Assembly (NCBI GenBank): GCA_965116875.1
Contig: OZ220733.1
Span: forward strand, 256,001 to 320,000
Origin: Candidatus Latescibacterota bacterium
GTDB taxonomy: Bacteria > Latescibacterota > UBA2968 > GCA-2709665
DNA: 64,000 nucleotides
Direction of reading: 5' to 3'
Shown here: positions 1 to 44,760 of the stretch, one piece after another
How the letters are laid out: each line of letters starts with the position of its first letter
How positions within the stretch are numbered: the stretch's first letter is position 1
Made by a program: the position numbers and the translations under genes
The notes under the pieces: model-generated
What the model was told of the DNA's origin: nothing
Database searches by the model: none
The model's input: only the letters and a program-made list of their open reading frames with translations

Positions 1-1
1 C

Positions 2-553: not shown

Positions 554-1256
554 GGCAATTCCTTAAGCTTGAAAAAAGTCGACATACGGCAGAGTCGGCG
601 TATGCATTTATCGTCTTTTCAGTTTTACTATTGCGTAAACGACATTCTGCAATTCAGACGGCATGGCCGTTTCGTTAAGATCGTCTATTGACGATTCCGA
701 ATCACACAATCCGTAGAAACACTAAGACCATTCATCGGTGCCCTACCCGAGTCTTGAATTAGGTAAAATCACCAGCCATGGTGCTAACCACGCTGCAATT
801 TCAAAAAAAAATCCTCAAGTTGATCATCCATTGAACTTTCGATTTATGGCGAACATTCGTGAGGCGATTTGTCACCTCCTGCTTTTTTCTTAAGCGAGAT
901 GTTCTCATTCTGCCGCCTCGACCGGCCGAGAAGACGAAACGCAGACACGATTAGTGAGTAATCACTTATTCTGCATTTATGACTCCAGCAAATCTGAAAT
1001 CTAGGGGATGGTACGAACGCACACCGTCGCGCTGGCAGAAATACGTCGTGGAAATCGCTCGGCGCTTCGGATATTTCCCGGCGAACAAAGTAGCCGTTTC
1101 GACCGAAACGGCGGGCGTCAGATAGGGCCTAAGCAGACGACACCATCTGTTTCGGTTGTCCCCGACCCGCGAAGCCCATAACTACCTATCCCGTTTTTTT
1201 CTCCGTTTTAAGAGTCTGGCAGTGCGACATCTACGCGACAGGGCTGGCGAGGCGGC

Positions 1257-1304
1257 CAGACAGGAATGTCCGCCCCACCTTCAGACCGGCATCCTCAGCA
1301 TAAC
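1257..1304 (+). repeat. REP-like 48-bp repeat, copy 1 (downstream flank of the kelch gene)
   Basis: cagacaggaatgtccgccccaccttcagaccggcatcctcagcataac matches 2502-2549 at 43/48 positions. Confidence 0.75.
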
Positions 1305-1325
1305 AGATCAGGTGCGCGGTTACTC

Positions 1326-2462
1326 TCAGGGTGTGAAAATGAAAATCTGATCCGTAGTCGACTCCCAATCTTGACTGTCATCCCTCCACTTGATTCCGCC
1401 GGCGACCATCACGCGGCCGTCTTCAAGGAGCGTGGCCGTAGCGAAAGACCTGCGCGGGCTGATGCTGTATCCGGTATTGGAAAATGCGTGCGTGACGGGA
1501 TCATACAGTACGATATCGCCGTTGTACGAGCGGATAAGAAACACGTTGCCGGACGGCAGCAGCAGGGCGGCACTGGGATCGATCGTTGAGACGCCGGCCG
1601 GTGAAAAGGTATTGGCTTCCGGGTCGTAGATCTCCGCCGTCTGCACGGATGGCCCTCTGCCGGAGGCGCCGCCGCCTATGATCAGGACCCTACCGTCCTC
1701 CAGTAGCACCGCCTTATGATTCCTGCGGTCGAACTGCAAGTTGCCTGCTTCCGAAAGGGCTTCGGTCGAGGGATCATAGATAAGATTCCGTCCCAGCAAT
1801 CCTGGGTCCCGTCCAACATTCTGTCCTCCAACGATCAACACCCTGCCGTCCTTCAACAAAGTGGCCGTATGGCCGATTCGGGAAGGATCCATCCTGAGCA
1901 AGGTGGAGAATGGGCCTGTCGTCGGGTCGAAGACACCCGCGTATAACGTGCTGGTCAAGAAGACCTTTCCGTCGAGAAGCAGAGTGGCAGTAAGAATCCC
2001 AATTCTCCGAGGCAAAACTGCCACAGGGTTGAATCTGCCGGAATGAGCATCGTACCTCTCAATGGGGAGATTGGGATTTCCGGGGATGATCAGGACCCGG
2101 CCGTCGGGAAGCAATATTCCGTGGTCCTCGCTGCGACTGGCAGTCAGGTCTCCCGTTGGCGTTGAGGTCCCGGTTTCAGGGTCGAATATTTCCGCACTGA
2201 TGAGACGCTTCGGCTGAGGAATGGGGGTATCCGGGGGAGGCGGCCCTGCGAGTACCAGCGGCAGTTCTTCGAGGCCGCCAGCGATCAGGACCTTGCCATC
2301 GTTCAGTAACGTCGCGGCATGCCAATACCGGGGTCGGGTCAGGTTTCCAACCTCGTGAAGACCCCTTTCAAGGGCCGGCGGCTCTGATGTGGTTACCGAA
2401 TCGCTTCCGCAAGCCCACAAGCTCGTGACGACGAACAGCGCGACCAAGATTCTGGTGGTCAT
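1326..2462 (-). CDS. Kelch/galactose-oxidase-type beta-propeller lipoprotein
   Basis: Lipobox SLWA-C, plus repeated R-x-x-H-x-A-T-L-L-x-D-G-R-V-L-I-x-G-G...A-E-I-Y-D-P kelch units. Confidence 0.9.
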   Translation of the reverse strand: MTTRILVALFVVTSLWACGSDSVTTSEPPALERGLHEVGNLTRPRYWHAATLLNDGKVLIAGGLEELPLVLAGPPPPDTPIPQPKRLISAEIFDPETGTSTPTGDLTASRSEDHGILLPDGRVLIIPGNPNLPIERYDAHSGRFNPVAVLPRRIGILTATLLLDGKVFLTSTLYAGVFDPTTGPFSTLLRMDPSRIGHTATLLKDGRVLIVGGQNVGRDPGLLGRNLIYDPSTEALSEAGNLQFDRRNHKAVLLEDGRVLIIGGGASGRGPSVQTAEIYDPEANTFSPAGVSTIDPSAALLLPSGNVFLIRSYNGDIVLYDPVTHAFSNTGYSISPRRSFATATLLEDGRVMVAGGIKWRDDSQDWESTTDQIFIFTP

Positions 2463-2501
2463 TTTCTGTCTCCTTCCCGACCGAAGGATACACGATGTGG
2501 A

Positions 2502-2549
2502 CAGACAGGAATGTCCGCGCCACCTTCAGACCGGATTCCTCTGCATGAC
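2502..2549 (+). repeat. REP-like 48-bp repeat, copy 2 (upstream flank of the kelch gene)
   Basis: Direct repeat of 1257-1304. A partial inverted copy (gcggacatcctg) follows at about 2566-2577. Confidence 0.75.
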
Positions 2550-3075
2550 GGTTCCGCGCAGGCGGCGGACATCCTGCTTCTCAGGTGTCGCCGCGTGTAA
2601 ATAGCGCAGAGATGATCCCATGCTGCAGTAGATCCTTCGTCGGCCTGGGGACCCTTCGACGGGCTCGCTTCGACAGGCCACTTCGGCAAGCTCAGTGCAA
2701 GCAGCACAAGCAGGGCAAGTCCTCTGGATGACAGCCGGAAGCTTCGTGCTCGTGTAACCAGGTTGATCAAACCTTCCTAAACACCATCTCTTAAACGGAT
2801 TTCGCCAATGTTGTTAAAAATGAGGTGCAGGTTTGTAATCCGGTGTCTTCGGACAAATGGGAAACGGTCGCCTGAGATGGTTTAATTAAACTGGGAGAAA
2901 CTGTCACATGCCGCTGATCTTACGTTTGATCAAATCAAAAACGAACACGATTTACAGCGATTGGAAAAACAACTGATGACGAGACATCCTCCCAATATCA
3001 TCTTCATGGTATGTGAAGATCAATAGGGTGCGATTGTCTAAAATCCAACATTTCCGCTAGATGACAAAGCCCAAT

Positions 3076-3339
3076 TTAGCTGCTCGCCAATTTACCGGAC
3101 ACATAACGAACCATAGAATTCACAGAATCGAAGAGGTCGACGCGTAATTCTTCGTCATCCACCTCAATTCCAAACTCCTGTTCAAGAGCAAAGATGATTT
3201 CTAGTGCGGCAATCGAGTCAACTCCCACGCCCTCGAAAAGCAACTCATCATCGGCAATGTCGTTAGGGTCAATACTCAGGCGGAGTGACTGGACGATCGC
3301 AGATTTTACACGCTGTCCAATGAGCGTCAATTCTTCCAT
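3076..3339 (-). CDS. Acyl carrier protein
   Basis: 87 aa, acidic, with the phosphopantetheine site GVDSI and LEQEFGIEVDDEEL. Its start overlaps the end of the upstream subtilase gene. Confidence 0.9.
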   Translation of the reverse strand: MEELTLIGQRVKSAIVQSLRLSIDPNDIADDELLFEGVGVDSIAALEIIFALEQEFGIEVDDEELRVDLFDSVNSMVRYVSGKLASS

Positions 3340-5243
3340 CCGTTTTTCTTGTCCTCGGTAAAGTGATCGATTGCCACATCAACCGCCTTTTGAATACCCT
3401 CTGCCGACGAAATACATATGGCGGGTAATCCAAAAGACCGTTCCAATTGTCCCAACTTACAGGCTACTTCGGCTTGAGTCAGCGGTCGCGGTCTTATCGA
3501 CGTTCGACCATACCTAGCCTGCACTCCCTTTTCAAAGTCTGACGTGGCTAGCAACAATGTGGGCGCGTGACAAAATGCGCGAATGCCGTTGACCGTGTCC
3601 TGAATATAGTCTTCGGGATCGACACTGTTTACCACCAATATGCAAGCATCAGGCTTCACACCCATTAAAAAAGCAATGGTGGGCAGCGTCAAAGTATGCT
3701 TGTCGCATACGTCATAGGGAACCGTTCCGGATTGGGTACCGACCAAAATGAGATGAGGTCGTGTTTGGTAGCAAATCTCGCGCATCTTCGCATCGAGAAA
3801 CGGAATATAGTATTCAGTCGGAATTCGAACAGAGGGTGCGTAGCCCATTGGAAACCCATAATCCATGCCGAATAGCTCGGAATGATGTTCAGTCCCAATC
3901 TGTGCAATCCGAAACCCTAGTTCTAGCAATCTTCGCCGGAACGCTAATTGAAGGGTAAATTTACCCTGTTGCGAACTCGTACCTACTATAGCCAAAACCG
4001 GAACATCCACTTCGGGGAGCGATGAGCATCCATCGACTGTACGGCTCGCCTCTTCAAACGACAGCTCAGGATAATACAGTCTCAATCCTTTAGAAGCAGC
4101 GACTTCATGCAAGTCACCGTACTCCGCGTGAGGTAGTGCAAGTAGGCTGAACACGTTTACTTCATTATCGAGTGCGACCTGAACGCACTTTCTAAGGAAA
4201 TCGCTCTTACGGATTCGACTCAATTCATCAACGTAACCAAGAATCAGAGTGTCTGCATGCTCCAGACACGCCGACAGCCGGGATGTGATCCGGAGACCCT
4301 TATTACACAGGCCGATTGCTTCCCCTGCATCGCTGCCGACCAATCCCTTTCCGACAGGATCGGATATGCCCACGACCTGAAAGCCCAATAGGTCATTCGC
4401 ACGAACTACGGCGTGCATTTCCTTATTATACGGGTAGAGGCAGGCCTTGCGTATCCACGAGAAGCGATCCTCTGCAGCAGACGGGACCTTGATGGATGAC
4501 GCAGGGTTTGTTACGAGAGGAGGCGCCGTTTCGGATACTGCGTGGTTACTCAGAATCTCACGGATCTGTTGCAAGCAGGCACCAGGGTAAGCCTGCCGGA
4601 TTAGCGCGATCAGACCGGTTATATGTGGCGCAGCGAAACTGGTACCGCCCATCATTATTTCCTTCGGCTCCAACCAACACACCCGTTGGGGGTCGCCGCG
4701 CGCAATGCACTCAATCGGTCGACCGGCGCGATAATAGTAGTCGTACGGGCCAAGCAACGCACCCGAACCGACACCAATGACGTCGGCTAACAACGCAGGA
4801 TACGAGTCACGTCCCTCGTTATTTGCGGATGCTACCAAAAGAGTACCAACGCTGACTGCATTGCGACAGACGTTTGCCAACTCGTCACGATAAGCGATAT
4901 CCGTTGTTCCCAAGCTTAGATTTACAATGTCGATTCCGTGCGCAACTGTCCATTCGATGGCCGCTATGAGCAGTCGTGGTTCCGTCGACAAGGATTCGTC
5001 AAAAACTCGGATACTATAAATTGAGGCGTCCATCGCTTTCCGCCGGATAATACCTGCACAGGCCGTTCCGTGACCCACGCAGTCTTCAAAATCAGAACCA
5101 TAGATTAAATCCCCTGCTTTACCGACTGATATAGAAACCCCGTCTGTCAACGGACCAACCTTCGGGTGGTCCGGCACGATGCCACTATCTATAACTGCGA
5201 CGGCAACGCCGCGTCCGGTCAAGTTTGAAAACGGAAAACTCAT
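3327..5243 (-). CDS. S8 subtilase fused to a DUF1611/TIGR04066-like P-loop domain
   Basis: Catalytic triad motifs VAVIDSG, GHGTACAG and GTSFAAPH, with no signal peptide. The C-terminal part has LYPYNKE...GLVGSDAG and VPVLAIVGTSSQQGKFTLQL...QIGTEHHSELFG. Confidence 0.85.
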   Translation of the reverse strand: MSFPFSNLTGRGVAVAVIDSGIVPDHPKVGPLTDGVSISVGKAGDLIYGSDFEDCVGHGTACAGIIRRKAMDASIYSIRVFDESLSTEPRLLIAAIEWTVAHGIDIVNLSLGTTDIAYRDELANVCRNAVSVGTLLVASANNEGRDSYPALLADVIGVGSGALLGPYDYYYRAGRPIECIARGDPQRVCWLEPKEIMMGGTSFAAPHITGLIALIRQAYPGACLQQIREILSNHAVSETAPPLVTNPASSIKVPSAAEDRFSWIRKACLYPYNKEMHAVVRANDLLGFQVVGISDPVGKGLVGSDAGEAIGLCNKGLRITSRLSACLEHADTLILGYVDELSRIRKSDFLRKCVQVALDNEVNVFSLLALPHAEYGDLHEVAASKGLRLYYPELSFEEASRTVDGCSSLPEVDVPVLAIVGTSSQQGKFTLQLAFRRRLLELGFRIAQIGTEHHSELFGMDYGFPMGYAPSVRIPTEYYIPFLDAKMREICYQTRPHLILVGTQSGTVPYDVCDKHTLTLPTIAFLMGVKPDACILVVNSVDPEDYIQDTVNGIRAFCHAPTLLLATSDFEKGVQARYGRTSIRPRPLTQAEVACKLGQLERSFGLPAICISSAEGIQKAVDVAIDHFTEDKKNGWKN

Positions 5244-5354
5244 CGCACCTGTTCACGAAAAAGCTAAAGGAGGACGGCGATATTCTCACGAATATCGCAT
5301 TGCCAGGAAATCGGTTAGAGTTGTTTCCCCCAACTTCTCCTAAAAGCAGAAATA

Positions 5355-5846
5355 CTAACCTCCGTCATCGGTCTCGGTTGCCACCGGAAATCCCGCCTCG
5401 GCCCACAACGGCCATCCACCGGAAAGCACCCTGACGTTTGCATATGTGAATTCTCGTGCGAGGCGCCGCGCTACATCATAGCTACTCATACATGTAGCAT
5501 TTGCACAGTAGACGATAATATCGGTATCCGCCGGATAAGGCTCAAGCACACGATGCAATTTGGAAGTCGAATAGTGATATGACAGACGGACAGCACCCGG
5601 AATATGCCCACCATTAAATGCCTCAGCCGAGCGAGCATCTACAAATAACGCTGCTCCCCTGTCATATTGGTGCTTAGCTTCAACTAAATCCAATGTCCCA
5701 ATAGCCTGTTCTTCTAAAGTGCCGACATTTGCAAGAGGAAGTCCAGCCACCGTCCGCCGGGCATAAAACCACTCGGTCAATTGAAGGACGGCACAATACA
5801 TCACAATTAATATGAATACCAGTGAAACTATAACCCATCGCCACAC
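5355..5846 (-). CDS. Membrane-anchored rhodanese-like domain protein
   Basis: N-terminal TM helix, then FVDARS...GHIPGA, active-site loop YCANATCMSS and VLSGGWPLW. Confidence 0.85.
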   Translation of the reverse strand: MWRWVIVSLVFILIVMYCAVLQLTEWFYARRTVAGLPLANVGTLEEQAIGTLDLVEAKHQYDRGAALFVDARSAEAFNGGHIPGAVRLSYHYSTSKLHRVLEPYPADTDIIVYCANATCMSSYDVARRLAREFTYANVRVLSGGWPLWAEAGFPVATETDDGG

Positions 5847-5877
5847 GAATTCGTATCCAATTCGGGACTCTTATTAA

Positions 5878-6067
5878 CCTTGATTCGAAAGTCCCCGGGG
5901 ACGTTAATTCGAATATGTGCTTGAAATAAAGGCGATTAGACGGCGGAAACCGAGGATACACCAGGTCACTGGACGTGAAGGGAAAAAACATCTTTCTTTA
6001 TGTCGACAACGCCCCGTTTCGGAGGGTTTTATCGCGTCGCCGCGTTGCTGTTTTTTTCGGATTGAGG
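5878..6067. mobile_element. 190-bp MITE family A, copy 1
   Basis: Imperfect TIRs CCTTGATTC...GGATTGAGG and a TTAA duplication on both sides (5874-5877, 6068-6071). Homologous to 9413-9601 and 34353-34542. Confidence 0.8.
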
Positions 6068-7750
6068 TTAATTGCGTGCCGTTGAAAAAAAACTGTTTAA
6101 GAAACTTTGTTTCTGGAGCAACGCCTGAGGTTGACCCTGTTCAACTACGGTGCCGTTATCAATGCAGATCACTTCATCCACATTTCGGACGACGTTTAGT
6201 CTATGACTGATAACTAGGATTGTCTTTCCAGCAAATATCCGTCGGACATTTCGAAGAATCGTGTGTTCATTTTGGGGATCCAAAGCTGCGGTCGCTTCGT
6301 CCATGATTAGCAACTCCGCAGGATTCAACAAGGCTCTAGCAATTGCAAGCCGTTGTCGCTGCCCACCCGACATCTGTACTCCTTGCTCTCCTATAGTTTC
6401 ATGTTGATTCAGATCGTTCAGACCAACCATCTCCATGACGCGGTCGATTTCTGATGAGTTATACCGAGCCGATCCGTACCGGATATTCTCGCCGACGCTA
6501 TCGTGAAATAGGTGGACTCGTTGGCTAACCAAACTGATATTACGCCTCAAGTCCGACAGTTCGAATTCTCGCATTTGAACATTGTCAATGTTGATGCAAC
6601 CTCGATCGGGAAGATGAAGCCCACAAAGCAAATTGGCAATCGTCGACTTTCCACTTCCACTCGCACCTACCAAAGCATACGATTTCCCTTTTGCCATACT
6701 AAATTTCACTCCTCGAAGTACTGTCTGACTCTCAAAACTAAAATAAACATCTTGAAGGTCAATCTGCCTCCCGAAGGTAAACTGTTTTCGTCCAGCAAAA
6801 AAACCAACCTCCGAGGGAATCTGCATAAACTCCAACACGCGACGCATGGAAACCAACCCTCGAACGAGCCCAATGTACATATCGTGCAGGTTCCGGACTG
6901 GCTGGAAAAGACGTACCGAGTACTGTAGGAAGGCAACTAGAGCGCCAAGCGACATGACGTCTTGCATAACCTGATACGCTCCGAATCCCATAATGAAGAG
7001 GGGGGTTAACGCGGCCAACCCTCCTGACACACTATTCATTGAGGCATAGTACAGGACATTGCGCATGATTAATTCAATTAGATCATCCGACATAAAACGA
7101 AATCTATCGGTTTCTCGCCTCGAACTATTCGTAAGTTTAATTAATGAGACGTTTTTAAATCGTTCAATTACGTAGCTGGAGATGTCGGACCCCTTTTTCT
7201 GAATCTTTTCGATATTCCGTCTAATCCTAGGCTGAAAATAGGTCAGATTTAATACAAACAACGGGACGCCGATTACAGTCAGCAAAAAAAGGGAGGCATT
7301 TAGCCACATCAACAATACGATCAGCCCAATCAAAGTCAGGACACTGTGGATCGAGTGCAACGCGCTGGAAGTCAGCATCGACTCAATCACTGCCACATCA
7401 CTATTGAGCCGGTAGACCAAATCTCCTGTCTTTCGATTGTCAAGTGAGCTTATCGGTAAATCCAACAGCTTACGAAACATCCGCACTCGCATATCCCGAA
7501 CAATGCGATTACTGCACCACGCGTAGAGGTAGTTTGATGCGAAAGACAAGATCATATTAGTTAACATCAAACCGCAGAGAAGTCCTATCGCGACTAGAAG
7601 AGTGGTATATTGTTTGGCTGGAATTATGTCATCGATAATCGTCTTCGTAATGTACGGTGGAGCTAAGGAAACCGCAGTGGTAAGGACAAGACAGATCACA
7701 ACGATTAATCCCTTAAAGCGGTAGGGATTCAGGAATTTGGCAAATCGCAC
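6068..7750 (-). CDS. ABC exporter, fused permease/ATPase (no C39 peptidase domain)
   Basis: Multi-TM N-terminal domain, Walker A GASGSGKS, signature MSGGQRQR, Walker B LLIMDE and H-loop SHR. Confidence 0.95.
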   Translation of the reverse strand: MRFAKFLNPYRFKGLIVVICLVLTTAVSLAPPYITKTIIDDIIPAKQYTTLLVAIGLLCGLMLTNMILSFASNYLYAWCSNRIVRDMRVRMFRKLLDLPISSLDNRKTGDLVYRLNSDVAVIESMLTSSALHSIHSVLTLIGLIVLLMWLNASLFLLTVIGVPLFVLNLTYFQPRIRRNIEKIQKKGSDISSYVIERFKNVSLIKLTNSSRRETDRFRFMSDDLIELIMRNVLYYASMNSVSGGLAALTPLFIMGFGAYQVMQDVMSLGALVAFLQYSVRLFQPVRNLHDMYIGLVRGLVSMRRVLEFMQIPSEVGFFAGRKQFTFGRQIDLQDVYFSFESQTVLRGVKFSMAKGKSYALVGASGSGKSTIANLLCGLHLPDRGCINIDNVQMREFELSDLRRNISLVSQRVHLFHDSVGENIRYGSARYNSSEIDRVMEMVGLNDLNQHETIGEQGVQMSGGQRQRLAIARALLNPAELLIMDEATAALDPQNEHTILRNVRRIFAGKTILVISHRLNVVRNVDEVICIDNGTVVEQGQPQALLQKQSFLNSFFSTARN

Positions 7751-7789
7751 AATCGCGTTTATTGATGAGATGTGTGGCTCCGCGGAAAA

Positions 7790-8482
7790 CTAAAAGGGAT
7801 CACTGAGGACACCGCGCCCCTTGATTAACTCCAATAGAGACATACCGTGCATTTCTTTCAAGGGTGAATCAGCGAAACCCTCAACATTAATCTCAAAAGC
7901 AGGCATATGATTGTAAACAAGATCAACGAAGAACAAGGATGTGAATTGCTCCGCTTGGATTAGAGGAAGGTGGCATCGAATTATCCTGTTTTCTGGACTG
8001 ACAAGAAAAACCACAGGAGTTCGCACGAACAACCCATCGGAATCCTCTGGTTCTAGCGGAACACCTAACTGAAACGTCAACCTGAAGGCTCGCTTAAATT
8101 TAGTCAATTCTGATTGATCCCCATTTGAAATGGCGTAAATCGGCATCTCTAAGGAGTCCTTTAGGTTGTCGTGGATGTGTTGCAGCGCCCGTAATATTAG
8201 ATTGATGCAAGGTTGGCACGAATTCGGCGAAAACAAAAACACCAAGCCGGTCTTTGATCCTGAAAAGTCAGTACTTACCGTATCATTGCCAGTCGTGCGA
8301 ATTGACAATTTTGGAAATCCGCGACCGACTATCAGATCCTGCCGGTAGGTATTGACCACAAACGTGCGGTAAAACCGTAGATCGGTGAGATGTAATTTGA
8401 ATAACCAGGCGAGGGAGACGACTAGACCAATTAGGAAAAGCAGATTCGATACTACCAATAATCTCGTTATCCGCATAATCAT
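7790..8482 (-). CDS. Membrane-anchored thioredoxin-fold (redoxin/TlpA-like) protein
   Basis: N-terminal TM helix, FLFSPNSCQPC CxxC motif and TPVVFLV cis-Pro loop. Confidence 0.65.
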   Translation of the reverse strand: MIMRITRLLVVSNLLFLIGLVVSLAWLFKLHLTDLRFYRTFVVNTYRQDLIVGRGFPKLSIRTTGNDTVSTDFSGSKTGLVFLFSPNSCQPCINLILRALQHIHDNLKDSLEMPIYAISNGDQSELTKFKRAFRLTFQLGVPLEPEDSDGLFVRTPVVFLVSPENRIIRCHLPLIQAEQFTSLFFVDLVYNHMPAFEINVEGFADSPLKEMHGMSLLELIKGRGVLSDPF

Positions 8483-9120
8483 ACCGAAACTTTACAACAA
8501 CCGTCGTTGCAGTCCATAGAGGTTATTGTAGTTTCTCGAATGAATTCTGTACGGTTCAAAACCACAACAAATCGACGGCCAACGGGTATTTGCCCTACGC
8601 TTCGGCGGCCGTCGCACACAGATGTTCTTGCGGGCACTGGTCATCTTCCGAACGCAGGCGCGCATCCTAAGATCCGGACTCACCCTCGACAAGACCACGC
8701 CAAACCACCTACGCAGCGCATTCGACAGACTCGAAACTTTGATCGACCAACATTGCGATCATGCCAAACTCGCTGCTTGAAGCTTGACTCAAACACCACA
8801 AAAACCGCCGACTAAGCAGGCTAGGGCTGCAGAAAGAATGCGCCAACCCAAGCTATTGCCACTGGCTCTCTGTGCTCTTTGCGCTGGATGAAGCCTTCCC
8901 CAAACACGACATCAACCCCGCTGGCCGCGTAAGATCGAAGCGATTTCCCAGCCGCACACTGGCGACAACCAATCCCATAGAATCCACGTTCACCACCGCA
9001 GCAGAGGGATTCTTCGATCCAATGAACAGCACCAATATCATACGTTTAACGTACTTACCGAAGTTAACGAAAGACCGAAATACGGATCCGATCCACCATT
9101 TCAGTCAACGAGAGTAATAC

Positions 9121-9342
9121 CTAAATGTTATACCATTCCGACCAATAGGTATCTCCCGAATTACAAAGGGCAACTTCGATCTCATTCGTGGCATCGCAAG
9201 AATAGTGGTCTCTCCGCTGCAACTGACCATTGTGGCACCTTTTTTCGAATTTGTCGTTGAACCATTGATATCCATCGTACCATTCGTACGCGTATATCAA
9301 TGTATCCTGTCGACGGTTCCGTGGTTTTCGTAGCAAGTTCAT
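9121..9342 (-). CDS. Putative RiPP precursor peptide 2 (73 aa, Trp/Tyr-rich, 3 Cys)
   Basis: RBS AAGGGAGG lies 4 nt before ATG 9342. Sequence: MNLLRKPRNRRQDTLIYAYEWYDGYQWFNDKFEKRCHNGQLQRRDHYSCDATNEIEVALCNSGDTYWSEWYNI. Confidence 0.7.
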   Translation of the reverse strand: MNLLRKPRNRRQDTLIYAYEWYDGYQWFNDKFEKRCHNGQLQRRDHYSCDATNEIEVALCNSGDTYWSEWYNI

Positions 9343-9412
9343 GTTGCCTCCCTTTTGAGAGTTTGAGAATTGGTGGATCGGAATCCGTAGTTTCGGCAAA
9401 TCGCAAAGCAAA

Positions 9413-9601
9413 CCTTGATTCCTCATTTTTCGAGGACTTTTATTTGAATATGTGTCAGTTAAAGAGGTGATTAGACTGCTGACTACCAGGATGCATCAGG
9501 ACACTGTACGTGAACGGAAGAAATGTCCTTCCTTAAGACCATTTCGGCACCATTCGGAGAGTTCCGTCGCGTCGCCGCGTTGCGACTTTTTCGGATCGAG
9601 G
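9413..9601. mobile_element. MITE family A, copy 2 (diverged)
   Basis: Termini CCTTGATTC...GGATCGAGG, flanks CAAA/CTAA, and an internal sequence colinear with the other two copies. Confidence 0.75.
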
Positions 9602-9651
9602 CTAATGAATGAGATAGATGCATCGATCGGATAAATCGACACGATTTACAG

Positions 9652-10875
9652 CTAGTTATTTGCACCAAAGTCAAGCGCATAGACAGCCACATTGCCATTG
9701 GAATTTTCCGACTCTGCTGCCGACGGCTCACTCCATACATACAACTGATCCCGCGAAGATGCTATACTATTCCACGGGACCGATATAACTTCGGATTCGA
9801 GGTGCTCCTTTGCTGACCTACTAAAGTCATAGACTCCGACGGCCTCTTCTGTGTCGAGGTCGTAAATCGACCAGTTGGTAATACTTGCGACGGTCGTGTC
9901 CTCGGTCGTGCCAGGGTTTATGTGCGAAACCATCAAAAATCGACCATGGACGATTGTCATGCTACTTACAGTTGTCATTTTCAATCCTCTCATATCTTCA
10001 CGACTCCCTTGTTCAATTCCATGATACCTTGTCGGCAACGGTACATATCCTTTCGGACGACGACCAAATCGCCTGATGGTTATCCCAGTCTCGGCGTCGA
10101 TTTCTCTAACCATGTAGTCGTTTGGTCCCAGGAAATACAGCCTATTCCGTACCACGCTGTAGCATAGATGCGCAAAGGCTTTCATGCGATATGAGATAAA
10201 CCTCTGGGAATTGGTAGAAAGAGCCACGCGATACACAACATCCCATCCGGACGGTTCAAGGCGTCGCAATTCCATTATCTTCATCGGGTTTACCATCAGT
10301 ACGAAGACCTCGCCCAATCTACCCGTTAACACCCTGGTGGCATGTAGTAACCGTGTCGTGTCCACATGTTTCCCGGCTCTGTCATATCGGACAATCTGGC
10401 CATAAGTTGAATCCAACAGGTACACCATACCCTGCGGGTCTATTGACATATAACGAGCACTGCCATATTCGCCTGGTCCGCGACCCTGACGACCAAACGA
10501 CTGGATATAGCGTCCGTCCGAAAGGTCAAATTCATGTGCTCTTTCACCAATCCGGTCGGTAAGCAGTAGAGTGTTATCCCGTGTCACACCTATCCAGTTT
10601 GCCTCACCAATCCCAGGTGTTTTTTCGTTAAAGTCCAGACTAAATTGGCGCTTCAAATCAAGACCGATTTCGCCGATATATTCCAACTTCGTTTCGTGAA
10701 TGGACTCTTCGTTGGCCTCGTGAGGCGAAGACTTCGAATACGTCTCCTTCGACTGGTCCGGCACTTGTGCAACCGCCCGGCCGTTTCCGGAAACAAGAAC
10801 GACCGTAAGTAAAAAAACAAAAAGACTGAACATTCTTTCCGGCCAATGACGTCCAGCTAACGTGCTCTTCTTCAT
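9652..10875 (-). CDS. Exported 6-bladed beta-propeller (NHL-like) protein
   Basis: Signal peptide ending AVA-Q, NHL-type motif FGRQGRGPGEY and RBS AAAGGAG. Confidence 0.8.
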   Translation of the reverse strand: MKKSTLAGRHWPERMFSLFVFLLTVVLVSGNGRAVAQVPDQSKETYSKSSPHEANEESIHETKLEYIGEIGLDLKRQFSLDFNEKTPGIGEANWIGVTRDNTLLLTDRIGERAHEFDLSDGRYIQSFGRQGRGPGEYGSARYMSIDPQGMVYLLDSTYGQIVRYDRAGKHVDTTRLLHATRVLTGRLGEVFVLMVNPMKIMELRRLEPSGWDVVYRVALSTNSQRFISYRMKAFAHLCYSVVRNRLYFLGPNDYMVREIDAETGITIRRFGRRPKGYVPLPTRYHGIEQGSREDMRGLKMTTVSSMTIVHGRFLMVSHINPGTTEDTTVASITNWSIYDLDTEEAVGVYDFSRSAKEHLESEVISVPWNSIASSRDQLYVWSEPSAAESENSNGNVAVYALDFGANN

Positions 10876-11361
10876 CGTGAACTCCTTTCGAATTTGTGCT
10901 GTGTCATTGTGTAATGGTTACGTGCGTAACCATATTATAATACAATGACTTGGGTACGGAAACCACCTCTTTTGTGAATTATTCAGGCTTAGTATGCATG
11001 ACGTCGCCGATACCCCAGCGACACAATTGGATTCTCACGTTCACCTTTTCTCCGACGACGGCGGCCTTCCACCTTCAAAACACCGTTCGCCTCACGCATT
11101 ACCTCTCTCGAGGCCTGCTAAACCTTCACTCGCGTTACGGACTGTATACTTGCAAGTTGCCATGCGACCTATACACCGGAGCTTAGGACAACTCGATGCT
11201 TTCCTGCCTGCTTTACTTGCAACCGACGGCGGCAACATTGGGCTGGTGCGACTCTCTCCCACAAGAGTTCCGCACCTTTTCACGGCGTATGGTTGTCGAA
11301 TTAACGCTAATCACACAATAATGTACGAGGAGGCTCGGTTGATCGAGTTTTATAAGTAGCT

Positions 11362-12819
11362 TCACTCGGCATCACCTTGATTAACCAATCTTAGATTGTA
11401 CCTCTCCTGCAACAGTTTCTTGTCCGTGTTTTGAATTTCTATACACATTTCCATGGCGAGTTCATAGCTATAACGGATCTGTTCGCACGAGACAGGGTTC
11501 GGATTTATCGGGTCCCCAGTTGCAGTCCGGGCATCATATATACACCCGCCCCCACACAGGTTTCTTGCCCAGCAACGCCGACAGTCGGAACGGGAATCGA
11601 CATGGAACGAATCTTTGAATCCATCCTGGACATTTTCGTCAAGACCAGAGAAGACGTCGCCCATCTTAAACTCCGGCCGGTCGGCAAGACTTGAACAAAA
11701 ATAGATGTCGCCTTCTACATCCACGGCCAGAAATGTCCTCCCGCCTTGACAGCCATAACATGATTTCGCGCGAGTCATTAATCGTTCGATAAAACGGTCG
11801 AAAAATCCTCTCTCGTGCGACCCTTCCAGAATGTTCGCCGTCTCATGCCGGCTTAAACCGCAAAGTCTGCGCTTTATTTCAGGCAGATGCTCCTCGCGCA
11901 GCGCATAAGGTTCTTCAGGTGCAGCAACGACAGGAGCCACTCTAACACGACATGCGCCAAGTTGCCTCAAATCATCAGCAATGGACTCCCTGTCCAGATT
12001 GTACGAAGTCATTGTTGCGCGTACCGATACCTTATCCGGTGACTCTTTCGTCAATTTCAACAGGTTCTCGGCCACCACATTGTACGTTTCACTGCCATCT
12101 CGAAACTTCCGCAGTCGGTTTTGGTCTCTCGGGTTGCCGTCGACACTAACCTGAATGTGAATTTCCTCATCAATTAGAAACTGTAAGATTTCATCCGAAA
12201 TTAGAGTGCCATTAGTTGCGATACCAAAAGAGACCTGAACCCCAACCCGATGGGCATACTCACGGGCAAAGGGAATGATATCTCGAATTAACTCGAAGTT
12301 CAGGAGCGGTTCCCCACCGAAAAAGTCTATCTGACACCTGCCGAACGAGCGAGCTTCACTCAGTGCCCATCGTACAGCCTGCCTTGCTACATGCGGCGTC
12401 ATAAATCCCGGTACCCTTCCGTAGTCGCCGCCATGTGCGAAGCAATAGGTACATTTGACGTTACAGGCGTGCGAAACGTGTAACGTGATGTGAAATTGAC
12501 TCTCACGGGGCTCGGACTCTGGCAATCCGCAGATCCCTTGATCCGGCCCCTGTGTATCTGAATGAAGTTTCAGCGAGGCATCGTATATGAGCTGGGCTTC
12601 GGCAAGGACCTCAACTGCCTTTAACACGTCCTCGCCAGGAAATTCATCGGCCAATTCAAAAACGACTTCCTGGTCCGTTAGTCCGTCGCAAATCTTGAGA
12701 ATCGACTCATAGAGCGGATTCAGTTCAAAGAACAGTCCCGTGTAAACCTGAAACAAAAACGTACGTTTCGACTGGGATGTTCTGAAAAGATGCATTTCAG
12801 ACTTTGCGATTCGTAGCAC
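11362..12819 (-). CDS. Radical SAM/SPASM peptide maturase with N-terminal RRE-like domain (CteB/QhpD/PapB-like, thioether-forming type)
   Basis: CNVKCTYC (CX3CX2C), DFFGGEP, and SPASM CYGCQGG...YFC...CRRCWARNLCGGGC...C. The start is probably GTG 12819 or ATG 12795; the ORF-track start at 12969 overlaps the precursor gene. Confidence 0.92.
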   Translation of the reverse strand: MLRIAKSEMHLFRTSQSKRTFLFQVYTGLFFELNPLYESILKICDGLTDQEVVFELADEFPGEDVLKAVEVLAEAQLIYDASLKLHSDTQGPDQGICGLPESEPRESQFHITLHVSHACNVKCTYCFAHGGDYGRVPGFMTPHVARQAVRWALSEARSFGRCQIDFFGGEPLLNFELIRDIIPFAREYAHRVGVQVSFGIATNGTLISDEILQFLIDEEIHIQVSVDGNPRDQNRLRKFRDGSETYNVVAENLLKLTKESPDKVSVRATMTSYNLDRESIADDLRQLGACRVRVAPVVAAPEEPYALREEHLPEIKRRLCGLSRHETANILEGSHERGFFDRFIERLMTRAKSCYGCQGGRTFLAVDVEGDIYFCSSLADRPEFKMGDVFSGLDENVQDGFKDSFHVDSRSDCRRCWARNLCGGGCIYDARTATGDPINPNPVSCEQIRYSYELAMEMCIEIQNTDKKLLQERYNLRLVNQGDAE

Positions 12820-12860
12820 TTCCTCTGCCCCCAATACCCGACACACAAACAACCGATATA

Positions 12861-13079
12861 CTATTGGGCTGTATGCTTTTCCCGTGGAGTGGGTCCATTC
12901 TGTGATTTTTTGATTGTGACCGCGTTTGTCATTGGTGGCGGCAGAATGGGGAACCACGGCCATTCGCACAACGTCGCTTCAATAGGAGTCGTCGATCCAA
13001 AGCATCCGCAAATTTTCCCCCTATTGTCTGAAACACCGTTGACCGGGAACAGTGAAGGTTTGGGATTATTCAGTGCCAT
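12861..13079 (-). CDS. Putative RiPP precursor peptide 1 (72 aa)
   Basis: Perfect RBS AAGGAGG lies 6 nt before ATG 13079. It is the first gene after the sigma54 promoter and sits directly before the rSAM. Sequence: MALNNPKPSLFPVNGVSDNRGKICGCFGSTTPIEATLCEWPWFPILPPPMTNAVTIKKSQNGPTPREKHTAQ. Confidence 0.75.
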   Translation of the reverse strand: MALNNPKPSLFPVNGVSDNRGKICGCFGSTTPIEATLCEWPWFPILPPPMTNAVTIKKSQNGPTPREKHTAQ

Positions 13080-13183
13080 TATCGTCCTCCTTGCCCGTTC
13101 AGCTTTGCGCGTCTCTATACTACAATGGAGATCAAACACGTGGCGCCAAATCCATCATGCAATTAATGCTATGAATGGGATGC

Positions 13184-13199
13184 TGCAAACCACGTACCC
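13184..13199 (-). promoter_or_regulatory. Sigma54 (-24/-12) promoter
   Basis: The minus strand reads GGGTACGTGGTTTGCA (GG-N10-GC), close to consensus TGGCACG-N4-TTGCA. It lies about 105 nt upstream of precursor 1 and next to a bEBP gene. Confidence 0.75.
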
Positions 13200-13200
13200 G

Positions 13201-13234
13201 AAAAACAAAAAACGCTTGTGTGAGACCACAAGCG
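13201..13234 (-). terminator. Rho-independent terminator after the regulator gene
   Basis: Perfect 8-bp stem CGCTTGTG/CACAAGCG with a 6-nt loop, followed on the minus strand by TTTTTTGTTTTT. Confidence 0.75.
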
Positions 13235-13465
13235 AAATAATTACAACGATTTATTTATTTGTTTTTTCTTTTCTATTCACGACGAGAGTTTGTTCTTAAA
13301 TTGTATTCATTGTATACAGAACTCTTCCTATGTGAAAGATATGCGTCAATTCAAACGAACAAAACCTTAAAATACAATACTTTAAATTCTGTCCAACGCC
13401 GTCTACACTTCTCTAGGATCGATGCGCAAGCTATCTACGCTGATGGCGAGGCTTTATCGTGCAAC

Positions 13466-16400
13466 TCAACGCAGACCATAACGCGTCATCATCTTCTGAA
13501 GTCCATTTCGGCTGAGACCTAAATGAGCGGCAGTATGAGAAATGTTCCCCTTGCATTTGTCAAGTGCCGCGGCTATCATCCTTTTTTCAAGGGCAGCCAC
13601 CTCCGATTTTAGATGTCCTCGCGAACCTTGTTCGGCGTCTTGACGATGTTCAATCCTCTTCGAGAATAGATCGACGGAAACCTTCTTTCCTTCTTCAACC
13701 AACGCAACCGCGCGTCTTATCTCATTCTGCAATTCACGGACATTGCCCGGCCACGCGTGATCCATTAATCCCCGCATTGCACCCACTGTAAAGCCCAGTA
13801 CTTCCTTTCCCTGCTCCGAAGAAACACGCTTCAGTATATGTTCCGACAACGAAGGGATGTCCTCAATACGGTCACGCAGTGGAGGCATTTCAATCTGTAA
13901 AACGCGCAGCCGGTAATACAAGTCCTCCCGAAAAAGACCGGCACGCACGTCCGCTTCCAGGTCGCGATTCGTCGCTGCAATCACCCGAACGTCTACGTGG
14001 CGAACATTAGTCTCTCCTACTCGCTGTGTCTCCCCATCCTGCAGTACGCGCAACAGGCTTATTTGCAATTGCGAAGAGGCATCCCCGATTTCGTCTAGAA
14101 ACACGGAACCGCCCTCCGCGGAGGCGAATAGTCCCTTGCGGTCGGATGAAGCCCCGGTAAATGAGCCTCTCTTGTGACCGAACAGCTCGCTCTGAAGCAG
14201 TTCGTGGGTAAGCGCCCCGCAATTTGCGGAGAGAAAGGGTTTCGCCTTGCGGTTGCTCCGGGTATGGATAGCCCGGGCGGCCAGTTCCTTCCCCGTTCCC
14301 GTCTCACCCTGTATAAGCACAGTCATGTCGCTTTCAGCCGCCACGTCGACCAGTTTGAACACTTCCTGCATCAGCTGACTCTGTCCGATAAGTTCTCCCA
14401 TTCGGTAGGTGCCCTCGTATTTTTCCTGGAAAAAAAGTGCCTGCTCCTGGCTCCGGGAGAACATCCGGGCGTTGACAACCGCAATGGAGGCCAAATTCGC
14501 AAATGCCGCAAACAAGGCTGTGTCTTCTTCGCGAAACAAATCTTCTAGCTTTCTATGGTCCAAATACAGCGCGCCGATGACACCCGATTCCGCATGCCGC
14601 AGTGGAACGCAAAGCACCGATCGGATGCCGTAGGCCGAAACGCTGGCCCTTTTTCTGAATCGATCGTCAACGCGAGCATCCAGACTCAATACGGGCTCGT
14701 GCCGCTGCATCGACCACCTGATTATTCCCTCGCTGATCTCCCTTGCAGCTAAGTCATCCAGATTATACTTACGCGCAACCTTGACGCGACCGGCTGCCCC
14801 ATCCTCGATAGCAATCAAAACACGTTCGGCCTGGCTCACCTTCTTCAGTCGGTCCAGAATTCGATCAAGTAGCACATTCAGGTCCAAGACCGACGTCAAA
14901 TCTTCGGATACTTCATAAAGGGTCTGCAGATGCTCTTGGGAAAGCGCCGTAACCTTCGCCTCTGGTGTAATAGTCATCGCAGTTTCCTCAATAACCAGGT
15001 TTAGGAGATCCGCTGCCTTTCGGGCCAGATAACGCAGATTCAAGCGTTCGGCAGCCTCACGGGCATTTTCCAGGCACCCTCGGGCATCGGCAAGACGCCG
15101 CCGTTCCAGATAATACGCGCCCGCTACAACGAACAGGTTTACCTGTTCCAAGCCGTCCGGGGAACCCTGGACTTCCAATGCATGATCAATCAGGGAATCG
15201 ACTTCGTCATGACGGTCGGCCGCGACGAGCGATTTCGCCTTTGCGGTCCATGCAATGGCGCGGACATTCCCGCCGTACTCCACGCCCGGCCAGGCCCGTT
15301 CGGCCCAGGCCAGCGCCTCTTCAACACGGCCGGTTTCCGCGAGTGTCTCGGCCAGCAACGCATGGGCGCGGCACATTTCATCGGAGCGGCCGGTACCCGA
15401 CAGAAGCCGCACTGCGGCACCCGCGTGTGCTTCTGCAGCCTCGGCATCTCCGTTTTCCAAGGCAACCCTGCCCAAAAACACGAGTGATCCTGCCTCCGCA
15501 GGTCTCGAACCGCGTTTGGCCCAAAAGTCTTTAAGCTCAAGGAAAATCTCCTCGGCCCGATCAAAATTACCCAACCGATTCTCTGCACGTCCCAAAAGGA
15601 AAAGACAGTTATGGCGATAAGCTCGATCGCCGTTCCTCTCTAATAGATTTAATGAAGAGTCCAGGAGCTTTTTCGATCTGTCATTACGATAAGTAAACTG
15701 CGCTGCAAACCCCAGATGCATCAAAGCACGGGCTTCGTTGATAGACCCTCCCATTTCGCGGCATTTTTCAGCTGCTGAATGACAAAATCCCGCAGCAACC
15801 TCTTTTTTCCCTAGCGCCACGTAGAGATTTGACAACAGACCCAAAACCCTAAGTTCATTCTCCGCCTCGCCCTGATTCCGGAAGAGTTCCAGCGCTTCTA
15901 ACAACATCGACTCAGCTCTTTGGCAGTCCCCGCCATTCACGTAGGTAATTCCTAAAATCCTCAACACATTCGCCCTTTGCGCGGGCATTTCAAAGGACGC
16001 CCACTGCATGGCACCTTCCAACTCGCGGCGCGCGTCTTCGTACCTGCCGCATCCGCAAAGCGCTTCGGAGTAAGCGCAGAGAAAGTCGAGATGCATCACC
16101 GAACCGCGCGCAATGCAAACGGGGGCATCAGGGGAAAACGCGCCTTTTTTGAGAACAGTTCGGAACTGTTCGAGTGCGTGCGAGAAATATTGCATCCCCA
16201 ATGCAAAGCGGCCGGATAAGGTGACGTACCGCGCCATTTTTTCCAGGTCGTTCGATCTCAAAAAGTGATAGGCCAATTCATCCAATGACTCTGCGGCGCC
16301 GCAATCCAACCGTCTTTCTAAGGCGCTGCCTGCCTCCTGGTGAAGCAACGTACGTCTGTTTAACGATATGCCGTCGTAAACCGCCCGTTGGATCAGTCCA

Positions 16401-18352
16401 TGTGAGAACCGATAACGTCCACGAGGGTCCTGCATATCTCTCAAAAGGCCCAGGCTGACGTTTGCATCCACCGTCTCCAATAACTCCAGTTCATCCTCGC
16501 ACCAGACGTCTGAAATCAGCTCGAACGAAAACGCGCCGCGAAAGATTGATGCATATTCCAGCGCCTGCCTTTGGGCCGAACGAAGTCGTCCCAGGCGCAA
16601 CTTGATGGCCTGCATAATGCCCGACGGCATTGGCCATTCCGTCTCCTTCGGCCACCTCCAAATTCCTGTTGAATCCTTCCATATCAAGCCGTCGGCAATT
16701 GCTCCCCGAACCAATTCTACGACAAACAGTGGATTCCCCCCAGTTTCCTGGAAAACCCTACGATTCTCTTCCTCAGGTACAGCCTGTTCTCCAAGCAGGG
16801 ACGCAGCCAGATTCCCAGTTTCGTCCATATCGAGAGGCTGGAGACGAAAATGTTCAGCTCGAGTTCCAATTGGCCCATCTGTCAGGTCGTCGATTCCAGG
16901 GGGTAGCGGATCTTCGTCCACCTTGCGGCAAGCGAGCCCGAAGACGAGAGGTACGGGATCCGGATCTCTCCTCACAAAGTCCAGGAACCGCAGGGTCAGG
17001 TCGTCGGCCCACTGCACGTCTTCAATGCATACAAGGGTCGGCGTTTCCCTGCTCAGATCGACGAGAAGTTCCGACAAGGTCTCCATCGCCGGGTACGGAT
17101 CCGGCTGATCGGCGGGCGCCGGCCGTTCAATTTGCGTAAGAACTCGCTTGACGGATTCTTCCAGGTCTGGACCCCGAACGCCGGTCTGATCGGCCAGGTC
17201 TCGCAGGATTTCCAGGAATGGCCCAAAGGCTTGGCCCCCGCTCTCATAGCAACGTCCTGATTGTACGCGCATTCCGTTGACGCGGGCGTCGGCCTGGAAT
17301 TCTTCAAGAACTTGGGTCTTCCCGATGCCAGCACTGCCGCTCACGAGAATGATGCGCCCTATACCCTCGCGAGTATCCTGCAGGATCTTCCGTAGAGCCT
17401 TCATCTCACGTTCTCGACCCTGGAACTGGGGTTGGAAAACGGGAACGTCTGGGGCACCCAAGACAGGCCGCATTGAAACGGTAGCTTCGTCACCGTCTCT
17501 ATAGAATCCGCTTTCCTCGTTATTCGTCAAATCATACAGCAAGCTCCCTACCGAACTGTAGCGGTCAATGGGTTCCTTCTCGAGAAGCTTCATTACTGAC
17601 TCTTCGATCCCCGAGAAATCTTCGCCGGTTACAAGGTGCGGAGGGCGCGGCAATTCTTTCAGATGCTGAAGCAATACCGTTGCTGGATCTTCTCCCGTGA
17701 ATGGTGGTTTCCCGGTAAGAATCTCGTAAAGAATGACTCCCAATGAATAAAGGTCGGATCGCTGGTCAACTGCCTTTCCCCGGATCTGTTCGGGGGACAT
17801 GTACTCCAAGGTCCCGGTAGCCGCTCCGGGAGCCGAGAGGCGTTCCTCCCTTACATCTCTAAATCGCGCCAGACCCAGGTCCAGAATCGTAACCTCGGGC
17901 TTACCCTCAATCTCTGAAATCATAATATTTGAGGGCTTCAGGTCTCTGTGCAACACACCCTGTTCATGGATGTATCCCAACCCTTCTACAGTCTGGCGGA
18001 TAAAGGGAACGAGCCACGCGGATTTTAGCTTTTCACGATCATCTACTCCTGAAATCAGGTCGGACAAGGGACGACCATGGACAAAGTCCATGGAAAAATA
18101 CGGACTCCCGTCGTGCGCGCCCCAGCTGTGTGAAATAACAACTCGAGGATGTCGGATTCGAGACAAGATATTAAACTCCCTCAGAAATCGCCTTTGTGCC
18201 CCGTCCCCCGTGAGATCTAATATCTTAAGCGCTGTAATGGAATTTTTCCGTACGTCCCGCGCACGATAGACGGTACCTAAACCTCCATTTCCAACGGTAT
18301 TGAGGATCTCGTAACACCCGTCGACAACCGTGCCAGCCTTTAATTCGGACAT
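13466..18352 (-). CDS. Ser/Thr kinase-AAA-TPR-GAF-sigma54 enhancer-binding protein with Fis-type HTH
   Basis: Kinase motifs [20 protein letters not shown] and YMSPE; NTPase GSAGIGKT; TPR-like helices; GAF (IRSVLCVPL); bEBP motifs [30 protein letters not shown] and WPGNVREL; C-terminal HTH. Confidence 0.95.
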
Positions 18353-34210: not shown

Positions 34211-34352
34211 GCGCGGAATATCCTTCCTTCCGTCGAATTTCGTCCGCTCGTCACAAGTCGCAGTTCAGAACGGCTCGTCGGTCACGACGTACGGCACGAA
34301 ATCCCCCGCCTCGATTCTCCGTGCCCGGCCTCGCCTGCCTGCCAGGACTTGA

Positions 34353-44758: not shown

Positions 44759-44760
44759 GA

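Follow-up and report, generated by a model that had tools for sequence, protein, structure and literature searches.

Which small gene supplies the substrate for the peptide-maturation enzymes encoded at this locus? The question arises in a 64,000-nucleotide (nt) stretch from Candidatus Latescibacterota (the window; all coordinates are window positions), where a minus-strand gene cluster encodes an S8 protease fused to a DUF1611 domain together with an acyl carrier protein (ACP). An open reading frame (ORF) of 73 amino acids (aa) lies at 9121..9342, and the genes around it are all on the minus strand. We find that this ORF probably encodes a leader-plus-core precursor of the S8-DUF1611/ACP maturation module. 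Its leader (~20-27 residues, basic and unstructured) most likely defines a previously unnamed family, in which the core of ~50 residues is fast-evolving and contains Cys.

The minus-strand ORF begins at an ATG at 9342-9340 and ends at a stop codon at 9123-9121, which is included in the range. The Shine-Dalgarno sequence GGGAGG at 9347..9352 (minus strand, read 9352-9347) lies 4 nt 5' of the ATG and bears out the strong ribosome-binding site reported in the first-pass annotation, which did not give the strand. Related ORFs likewise have GGAG- or AGGA-type ribosome sites. An alternative in-frame ATG at 9426, which would yield a 101-aa protein, has no Shine-Dalgarno sequence, and the relatives all start at the position of 9342. 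The peptide has a basic N-terminus, Cys residues at positions 36, 49, and 60, Trp residues at 21, 27, 67, and 70, and seven Tyr residues. The single C-X3-D motif is C-N-S-G-D at residues 60-64, and aromatic clusters at residues 19-28 and 66-71 mark both ends of the core. The translation thus agrees with the basic leader, three Cys, four Trp, CNSGD motif, and terminal aromatic clusters described earlier. The leader ends at about residues 19-27, with Cys36, Cys49, Cys60, and C-N-S-G-D all within the core, which is rich in Cys, Trp, Asp, and Glu. The first-pass annotation describes CLI_3235-type leaders as basic and ending in T-x-E-A-Y; the window leader is basic and holds an I-Y-A-Y sequence, of which A-Y is the element conserved across relatives. 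In the predicted structure, residues 1-23 are disordered and the core forms a moderately confident beta hairpin (mean predicted local distance difference test score, pLDDT, 57.9). Searches of Pfam, NCBIfam, PDB sequences, Foldseek, and the ESM Atlas returned nothing usable for the peptide: the best PDB chain by sequence was an unrelated kinase at E = 0.2, and a fold search against the PDB with the peptide model gave 0 matches at E ≤ 0.001.

Relatives were sought through synteny. An alignment of 25 fusion relatives was used to collect 80 loci, comprising 14 with a full-length fusion, 2 cut by contig ends, and 64 that match the S8 part only. The search proposed with the first-pass annotation, tBLASTn with the 73-aa peptide, recovered a copy in one of the 80 loci (L001) and no other clear homologue; a weak match in L014 (E = 25) was used as a lead. 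L001 is a near-identical Candidatus Latescibacterota genome in which the fusion protein is 99% identical to that of the window and the peptide is 96% identical, with 3 residue changes that all fall within the core. In L002 and L006, an ORF of 71-72 aa with a strong ribosome site lies directly after a gene for a beta-propeller protein, and a pattern built from the window, L002, and L006 peptides led to three tandem ORFs of 75, 71, and 73 aa in L014. An independent scan, which looked for short ORFs on the same strand that have a ribosome site, added an 89-aa ORF in L003. All of these ORFs lie on the strand of the fusion gene, 2.9-7.4 kb upstream of it. Because the search pattern was derived partly from the window peptide, the family statistics given below are partly circular. 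A 50-aa ORF at 11213-11365 with a leader-like start was also considered as a family member, but its frame is interrupted by a stop codon in L001 and it was discarded for that reason.

The eight sequences, from the window, L001, L002, L003, L006, and L014, share the invariant residues M1, L4, K6, Y19, and W27 and a leader of the form M-N-x-L-x-K-P, followed by two hydrophobic residues and A-Y, and then by W. A profile of the eight retrieved 54 proteins of 66-89 aa, none with a Pfam or NCBIfam domain and all named only 'hypothetical protein', in which three core types stand behind one leader. The first type, represented in L014 and L003, is hydrophobic and rich in Gly, Ala, and Cys; the second, the L002 type to which the window peptide belongs, is hydrophilic, with lengths of 69-71 aa; the third is the L006 type. 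By BLASTP the window peptide matches family members P0174 (E = 9e-6) and P0176 (E = 4e-4), both over residues 2-64, and the three share H-N-G-Q or N-G-Q, Y-x-C, and C-N-[SP]-G-D. The last of these occurs in 5/7 sequences of the closest subgroup, so that the CX3D motif singled out in the earlier description is a conserved feature. Taken with the contrary results given below, these matches make homology of the window peptide to the family probable, not proven.

The L014 paralogs show how such genes evolve. The three tandem precursor genes (L014 positions 3406-4406) have near-identical leaders and divergent hydrophobic cores, and the ratio of nonsynonymous to synonymous polymorphism (pN/pS) is 0.20-0.48 in the leader vs 1.03-1.25 in the core. 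This is the pattern expected for a translated leader that guides a diversifying core. Together with the conserved leader and variable core seen in the alignments, it supports the leader-plus-core layout that had been proposed for the window ORF.

The family is tied to the fusion gene by its distribution. A hidden Markov model (HMM) of the family matched 8 of 21,645 ORFs at E ≤ 2.1e-9, namely the window ORF and 7 ORFs in L001, L002, L003, L006, and L014, with the next match at E = 3.8. Family peptides are encoded in 5/14 full-fusion loci vs 0/64 S8-only loci (Fisher p = 9.5e-5), a value inflated by relatedness because all five positive loci are from Latescibacterota. Both the fusion gene and the ACP gene are present in 5/5 family-positive loci. 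In 11/14 fusion loci the ACP gene comes after the fusion gene; in L014 it is found 4 kb further downstream. The larger module recurs in L002 and L006, with genes for the propeller, an AhpC-like protein, an ATP-binding cassette (ABC) exporter, a rhodanese, the fusion, and ACP. The suggestion that the peptide is a substrate of the S8/DUF1611/ACP module is therefore upheld in part: co-occurrence (5/14 vs 0/64) connects the two, while phylogeny confounds the measure. Since relatives of the 73-aa ORF exist and occupy syntenic positions, the ORF is, judged by comparative sequence evidence, a real gene and more than a chance frame.

Other fusion loci encode other small Cys-containing peptides: in L015 (3510-3629) and L034 (9668-9787) a basic ORF of 39 aa sits between the genes for ACP and the fusion, and L011 has two peptides of the double-glycine type. 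On several large contigs, among them one of 5,725,310 nt, two distinct S8-DUF1611 fusion genes occur together, so one genome can hold more than one such system.

Several results weigh against this assignment of the window ORF. BLASTP finds no significant similarity of the window peptide to its counterparts in L002 and L006 (E = 0.055; no alignment). With an HMM of six leaders from which the window was left out, the window ORF is the top non-training match among the 21,645 ORFs, at E = 1.9; an HMM of the other 53 family members misses it at E ≤ 10, and an HMM of the four closest members places it at rank 8 with E = 9.3, equivalent to about 4e-4 for one ORF picked beforehand. A word-index search with the peptide returned the query alone, and phmmer against 1.84 billion representatives returned only the query and one eukaryote-like Ig-repeat protein of 732 aa, which was judged spurious because the similarity runs through a Y-N-Y-E-W-Y-K-G repeat. 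Relative to L001, the ORF has 1 synonymous change vs 3 changed residues, with no sign of purifying selection, and 2.7% of its bases differ vs 0.78% in the downstream intergenic stretch. As the downstream intergenic DNA is conserved at least as well as the ORF, the L001 comparison gives no evidence of constraint. Codon usage weakly favours the ORF's own frame (+0.046 per codon vs -0.059 and -0.194 in the other frames), and the codon score is below that of 98.8% of the 73-codon windows from neighbouring genes. Within the examined flanks, 9/14 fusion loci have no family peptide. Finally, by Pfam and tBLASTn, L014 and L003 have no radical SAM (rSAM) gene in examined flanks that are not cut by a contig end.

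The 73-aa ORF and its ribosome site are enclosed by a bracket-like inverted repeat. The 5' arm (9367..9396, minus strand, 30 nt) spans -54 to -25 from the ATG, and the 3' arm (9075..9102, minus strand, 28 nt) spans +19 to +46 past the stop; between them the arms have two single-base bulges and one mismatch. In a predicted RNA fold of 9060-9420 the arms are paired (z = -5.4), with 0/100 shuffles as good. RNA duplex energies did not separate such brackets from positional controls, which were as strong in 26/852 cases for the window, in 192/656 for L006, and in 389/682 to 664/847 for the remaining genes. Because duplex energies failed to discriminate, we adopted a local inverted-repeat score, compared with control positions of the same spacing in the same locus. 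By this measure, brackets surround 6/7 family genes. The score is 21 for the window (reached by 0/352 controls), for L006, where the 21-nt repeat is perfect (0/270), and for L014b (0/350); 20 for L014c (1/349); 15 for L003 (0/350); and 12 for L002 (0/281). The first tandem copy in L014, L014a, has no 3' arm and no repeat (score 8, reached by 201/349 controls). For comparison, five other small or short window genes score 5-7, the L015 and L034 peptide genes 14 and 8, and the two L011 peptide genes 6 and 8. The arm sequences are unrelated between loci, and in 4/7 genes a distance of 24-28 nt separates the end of the 5' arm from the ATG. Either a closing stem of the mRNA or a site of DNA inversion would be compatible with the bracket.

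The same repeat raises the possibility that the ORF is untranslated and that the 330-nt segment bounded by the arms is a mobile or invertible DNA cassette in which the frame is incidental. The arms pair almost wholly by Watson-Crick pairs, as DNA-level repeats do, and in L001 a 15-nt piece of the 3' arm occurs exactly a third time; the lack of visible purifying selection against L001 and the weak codon usage also fit. Against a cassette, protein similarity to P0174-P0176 extends through the whole ORF, purifying selection acts on the leader among the L014 paralogs, and the segment has the same orientation in the window and in L001. The arms also vary between loci while the enclosed peptides are related, which misfits one mobile element. 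We regard an untranslated cassette as very improbable and retain the reading of the ORF as a precursor gene. The third copy of the arm piece lies within a 473-nt segment at L001 6206-6678 that is missing from the window, where the corresponding position is 8565. Divergence between the window and L001 rises from 0.8% over 1-8565 to 3.2% over 8565-14774, and this jump at 8565 suggests recombination.

The bracket is distinct from a second repeat nearby. The first-pass annotation had placed a miniature inverted-repeat transposable element 70 nt upstream of the ORF, and a repeat of ~200 nt is indeed there, with three copies in the window (5876-6072, 9405-9610, and 34352-34535; same orientation, 70-81% identity) and two in L001. 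The first two window copies are also delimited more narrowly, as 5877-6060 and 9412-9595. Two of the window copies occupy intergenic gaps of this cluster, and the copy nearest the 73-aa ORF lies between the propeller gene and the 5' arm and starts 70 nt upstream of the ATG. Its ends pair over ~12 nt with transitions, as judged by eye from the alignment. The ~200-nt repeat gives no RNA-fold signal (z = 0.26 and 0.94) or Rfam match and was not found in the loci of other species; the element that encloses the 73-aa gene is the inverted repeat of 28-30 nt. Promoter scans near the ORF were negative: no sigma-70 promoter was found in 8400-9700, and the sigma-54 pattern has 5 matches in the window vs 4.08 expected, none near the ORF. 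Elsewhere in the window, 44757-44884 consists of ~15 degenerate tandem copies of TACGAAAG at a period of 8 nt, and 26325-27436 contains a 50-nt unit seven times at a spacing of 150-204 nt that probably encodes a repeat-domain protein.

In transcription order, the minus-strand cluster starts with a Ser/Thr-kinase/GAF/sigma-54 activator gene (13466-18352), which precedes the gene for an rSAM/SPASM enzyme of the thioether-forming group (11362..12969, although the true start may be the ATG at 12795). A secreted NHL-type six-bladed beta-propeller (DUF5128/DUF4934) is encoded at 9652..10875, directly before the peptide gene, an arrangement shared by the window, L002, and L006 (3/3 loci of this subgroup). 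A palindrome of ~40 nt (~10905-10947) just upstream of the propeller ribosome site, identical in L001 except for two central bases, may be an operator. After the peptide gene come genes for a membrane-anchored AhpC/TSA-like thioredoxin-fold protein with a C-Q-P-C motif (7790..8482), which has homologues in L002, L006, and L012 and a Redoxin counterpart in L003; an MsbA-type ABC exporter (6068..7750) with ABC_membrane and ABC_tran domains and no peptidase domain; and a rhodanese with an N-terminal membrane anchor (5355..5846). The S8-DUF1611 fusion (3327..5243) and the ACP (3076..3339) follow, and after these come a 103-aa ORF of no assigned family, a Kelch protein gene, and a gene for a BtrH_N/C39-like protein. 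A 62-nt direct repeat (1248-1309 and 2493-2554, 84% identity) has one copy immediately beyond the Kelch gene and its second copy within the 103-aa ORF.

The fusion protein joins an S8 protease to a P-loop domain of the DUF1611/TIGR04066-like type. Its N-terminal part scores 99.8 bits on Peptidase_S8, the triad D19, H58, and S202 is invariant in 25/25 aligned fusions, and the best NCBIfam match of the S8 domain is the leader peptidase QhpE (143.8 bits, cut-off 165). The C-terminal part scores 103.7-105.8 bits on TIGR04066 (E ~1e-30, cut-off 200) and by these scores is a relative of TIGR04066 and not an equivalog. The P-loop of the DUF1611 domain is invariant. A model of the C-terminal half (pLDDT 84.7) finds its closest PDB folds in the DUF1611 structures 2g0t and 2obn and in 7xrj, deposited as the N-acetyltransferase DgcN. 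The neighbouring ACP has a G-V-D-S attachment motif and matches ordinary ACP models. Because the DUF1611 domain has a DgcN-like fold and a true ACP is encoded next door, we can guess, and only guess, that the fused domain might transfer an ACP-borne group to the peptide.

The rSAM enzyme is harder to connect to the 73-aa peptide. Its scores are below cut-off on all five maturase models examined: nif11 (246 bits), SCIFF (245), PapB (237.4, cut-off 340), QhpD (229), and CcpM (150.2, cut-off 500); it is below every other NCBIfam cut-off as well. The propeller gene separates the rSAM gene from the 73-aa ORF. Directly upstream of the rSAM gene, a 72-aa minus-strand ORF with three Cys (12861-13079) has an AAGGAGG ribosome site and no family leader; its frame is open in L001 as well, though at just 76% identity, and the small ORF overlaps the rSAM ORF in its long form, which starts at a GTG. 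This small ORF is probably the rSAM's own candidate substrate, and given its position the rSAM may act on it, on the 73-aa peptide, or on both. Since two well-covered loci, L014 and L003, have no rSAM gene, the link of the peptide to the rSAM is uncertain; the L002 and L006 loci are cut by a contig end on the upstream side. The intervening propeller, the rSAM's own small ORF, and the two rSAM-free loci thus lend no support to the earlier proposal that the peptide is possibly a substrate of the rSAM as well.

These observations could also be accommodated if the peptide were an exported, leader-cleaved, bacteriocin-like product with disulfides only, the DUF1611/ACP pair and the rSAM serving something else, such as the ORF at 12861-13079. 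The family is repeatedly accompanied by the ABC exporter and the CxxC thioredoxin-fold protein, a small ORF of the rSAM's own, with an AAGGAGG site, adjoins the rSAM gene, and the L014-type cores are hydrophobic and rich in Gly and Ala, one of them weakly matching a circular-bacteriocin model at a non-significant E = 0.15. The presence of fusion and ACP genes in 5/5 family-positive loci argues the other way, as do the odd number of Cys residues (3) and the conserved C-N-x-G-D, which point beyond one disulfide. We consider a disulfide-only product unlikely.

The position of the propeller gene suggests a further alternative. In the maturation of QhpC of quinohemoprotein amine dehydrogenase, the rSAM enzyme QhpD forms thioethers, the S8 protease QhpE removes the leader, and QhpF carries out export. 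The 73-aa peptide might similarly pass through such maturation and export and then serve the secreted NHL propeller as a small cross-linked subunit or partner, instead of being a natural product that is set free. The propeller gene directly precedes the peptide gene in 3/3 subgroup loci, QhpE is the best NCBIfam match of the S8 domain (143.8 bits vs 165), and the rSAM scores 229 bits on QhpD; the core, moreover, is predicted to form a beta hairpin, not a disordered chain, and is rich in Cys, Trp, Asp, and Glu. Set against this, three other thioether maturase models give the rSAM an equal or higher score, the peptide has no PDB sequence similarity (best E = 0.2) or fold match (0 at E ≤ 0.001), no haem or flavoprotein partner and no dehydrogenase subunits turned up when the cluster was scanned with Pfam, and the L014 and L003 family loci have no propeller. 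On balance a propeller subunit appears quite unlikely.

With the peptide taken as a precursor of the S8-DUF1611/ACP module, a maturation path can be proposed. The gene would be transcribed with the minus-strand cluster, and its mRNA is predicted to close through the 5'/3' stem of 28-30 nt with the ribosome site left free; this stem may serve the protection or excision of a stable precursor message. The S8-DUF1611 fusion would recognise the leader, and its S8 domain, with an intact D/H/S triad, would remove it near the invariant A-Y, a role inferred from the co-occurrence and from S8 leader peptidases such as QhpE. The DUF1611 domain might then, with holo-ACP as donor, attach an ACP-borne group to the peptide, perhaps at the freed amine. 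The window rSAM/SPASM enzyme could cross-link Cys60 to Asp64 of the C-X3-D motif, a step that the family does not require. Topology and synteny suggest that the MsbA-type exporter would move the product out, where the anchored CxxC thioredoxin-like protein, the anchored rhodanese, and the secreted NHL propeller could act on or bind it. A more ambitious version combines a dedicated expression device, in which the bracket forms an RNase-III-excisable mini-mRNA or an inversion switch, with a fused enzyme that couples leader removal to ACP-borne acylation. It would yield a new class of acylated peptide, thioether-linked here, from a phylum without cultured producers; we hold this complete scenario to be tentative and rather unlikely.

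The TIGR04066/ACP/S8 peptide-maturation module is widespread: scoring of 8000 candidates gave 540 fusion proteins at E ≤ 1e-10, with identities of 52-69% for the best 120. The available portions of PMC10731318 and PMC4573289 assign no chemistry to it. The module now gains a defined set of likely substrates, 54 small proteins with three core types and one leader, from Latescibacterota and from bins labelled Gemmatimonadota. Similarity in fold to an N-acetyltransferase hints at the mass shift that the peptide would show, and the bracketing inverted repeat is a separate and easily testable oddity in the expression of precursor genes.

The closest described system is the Firmicute CLI_3235-type cassette for 'Cys-rich peptide' maturation, which has a precursor peptide (TIGR04065), the rSAM enzyme CcpM (TIGR04068), TIGR04066, an ACP-related protein (TIGR04069), a subtilase, and an ABC transporter (PMC10731318, PMC4573289). 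In the sections of these sources available to us, such cassettes are described in silico for Roseburia intestinalis (PMC4573289) and for the SacP23 cluster of Paenibacillus polymyxa, which encodes a 61-aa precursor with a 19-aa leader (PMC10731318), and no biochemical characterisation of TIGR04066 and the carrier protein of these cassettes was found; CcpM is only named in the corresponding part of PMC9062424. No paper linking DUF1611 to peptide maturation was found in the open-access library that was searched. Like the cassettes as described there, the window places an rSAM/SPASM enzyme, a TIGR04066-like protein, a carrier protein, an S8 protease, and an ABC exporter beside a small Cys-containing peptide with a short basic leader, and a subtilase and an ABC exporter are indeed both encoded in its cluster. 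The window differs in that a single protein unites the S8 and TIGR04066-like parts, the carrier protein is a canonical ACP that scores 14.1 bits on TIGR04069 (cut-off 70), and the rSAM, with 150.2 bits where the CcpM cut-off stands at 500, is not that enzyme and scores higher on nif11, SCIFF, PapB, and QhpD. It also adds the extracytoplasmic propeller, thioredoxin-like protein, and rhodanese, and it comes from the phylum Latescibacterota. The TIGR04065 model, presumably in the NCBIfam library as TIGR04066, TIGR04068, and TIGR04069 are, gave no match at E ≤ 1 or E ≤ 10 for the window peptide, for 33/33 family members scanned, or for the Firmicute peptides L015:3510-3629 and L034:9668-9787. The label 'CLI_3235-like' given in the first-pass annotation is thus not upheld in the sense of family membership. 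We think it reasonably likely that the window cluster is a relative of the Firmicute CLI_3235/TIGR04066 system whose peptide, rSAM, and carrier fall outside the respective families.

Other known systems share parts of this arrangement. In ranthipeptides, PapB-type enzymes form thioethers from Cys to Asp or Glu at C-X3-D/E motifs. The window core resembles these substrates in its one C-X3-D, conserved in the closest relatives, and the rSAM scores 237.4 bits on PapB; it differs in that this score is below the cut-off of 340, the motif is single and not repeated, the precursor is not adjacent to the rSAM, and some family loci have no rSAM at all. The QhpC system likewise joins an rSAM, an S8 leader peptidase, and ABC export to a small Cys/Trp-containing peptide encoded next to a beta-propeller gene, whereas the window scores are all below cut-off, the peptide is unlike solved chains and folds, and neither dehydrogenase subunits nor a flavoprotein were found. 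DgcN (PDB 7xrj) shares the DUF1611 fold of the fusion's C-terminal half as its third-best PDB match (E = 2.5e-13, TM score 0.56-0.62). Identity is 17%, the window domain is instead fused to a protease and paired with an ACP, and any transferase activity of it is putative. Measured against ribosomally synthesized and post-translationally modified peptides in general, the family shows the characteristic conserved leader and variable core, encoded by a gene that lies beside those for a protease, tailoring enzymes, and an exporter.

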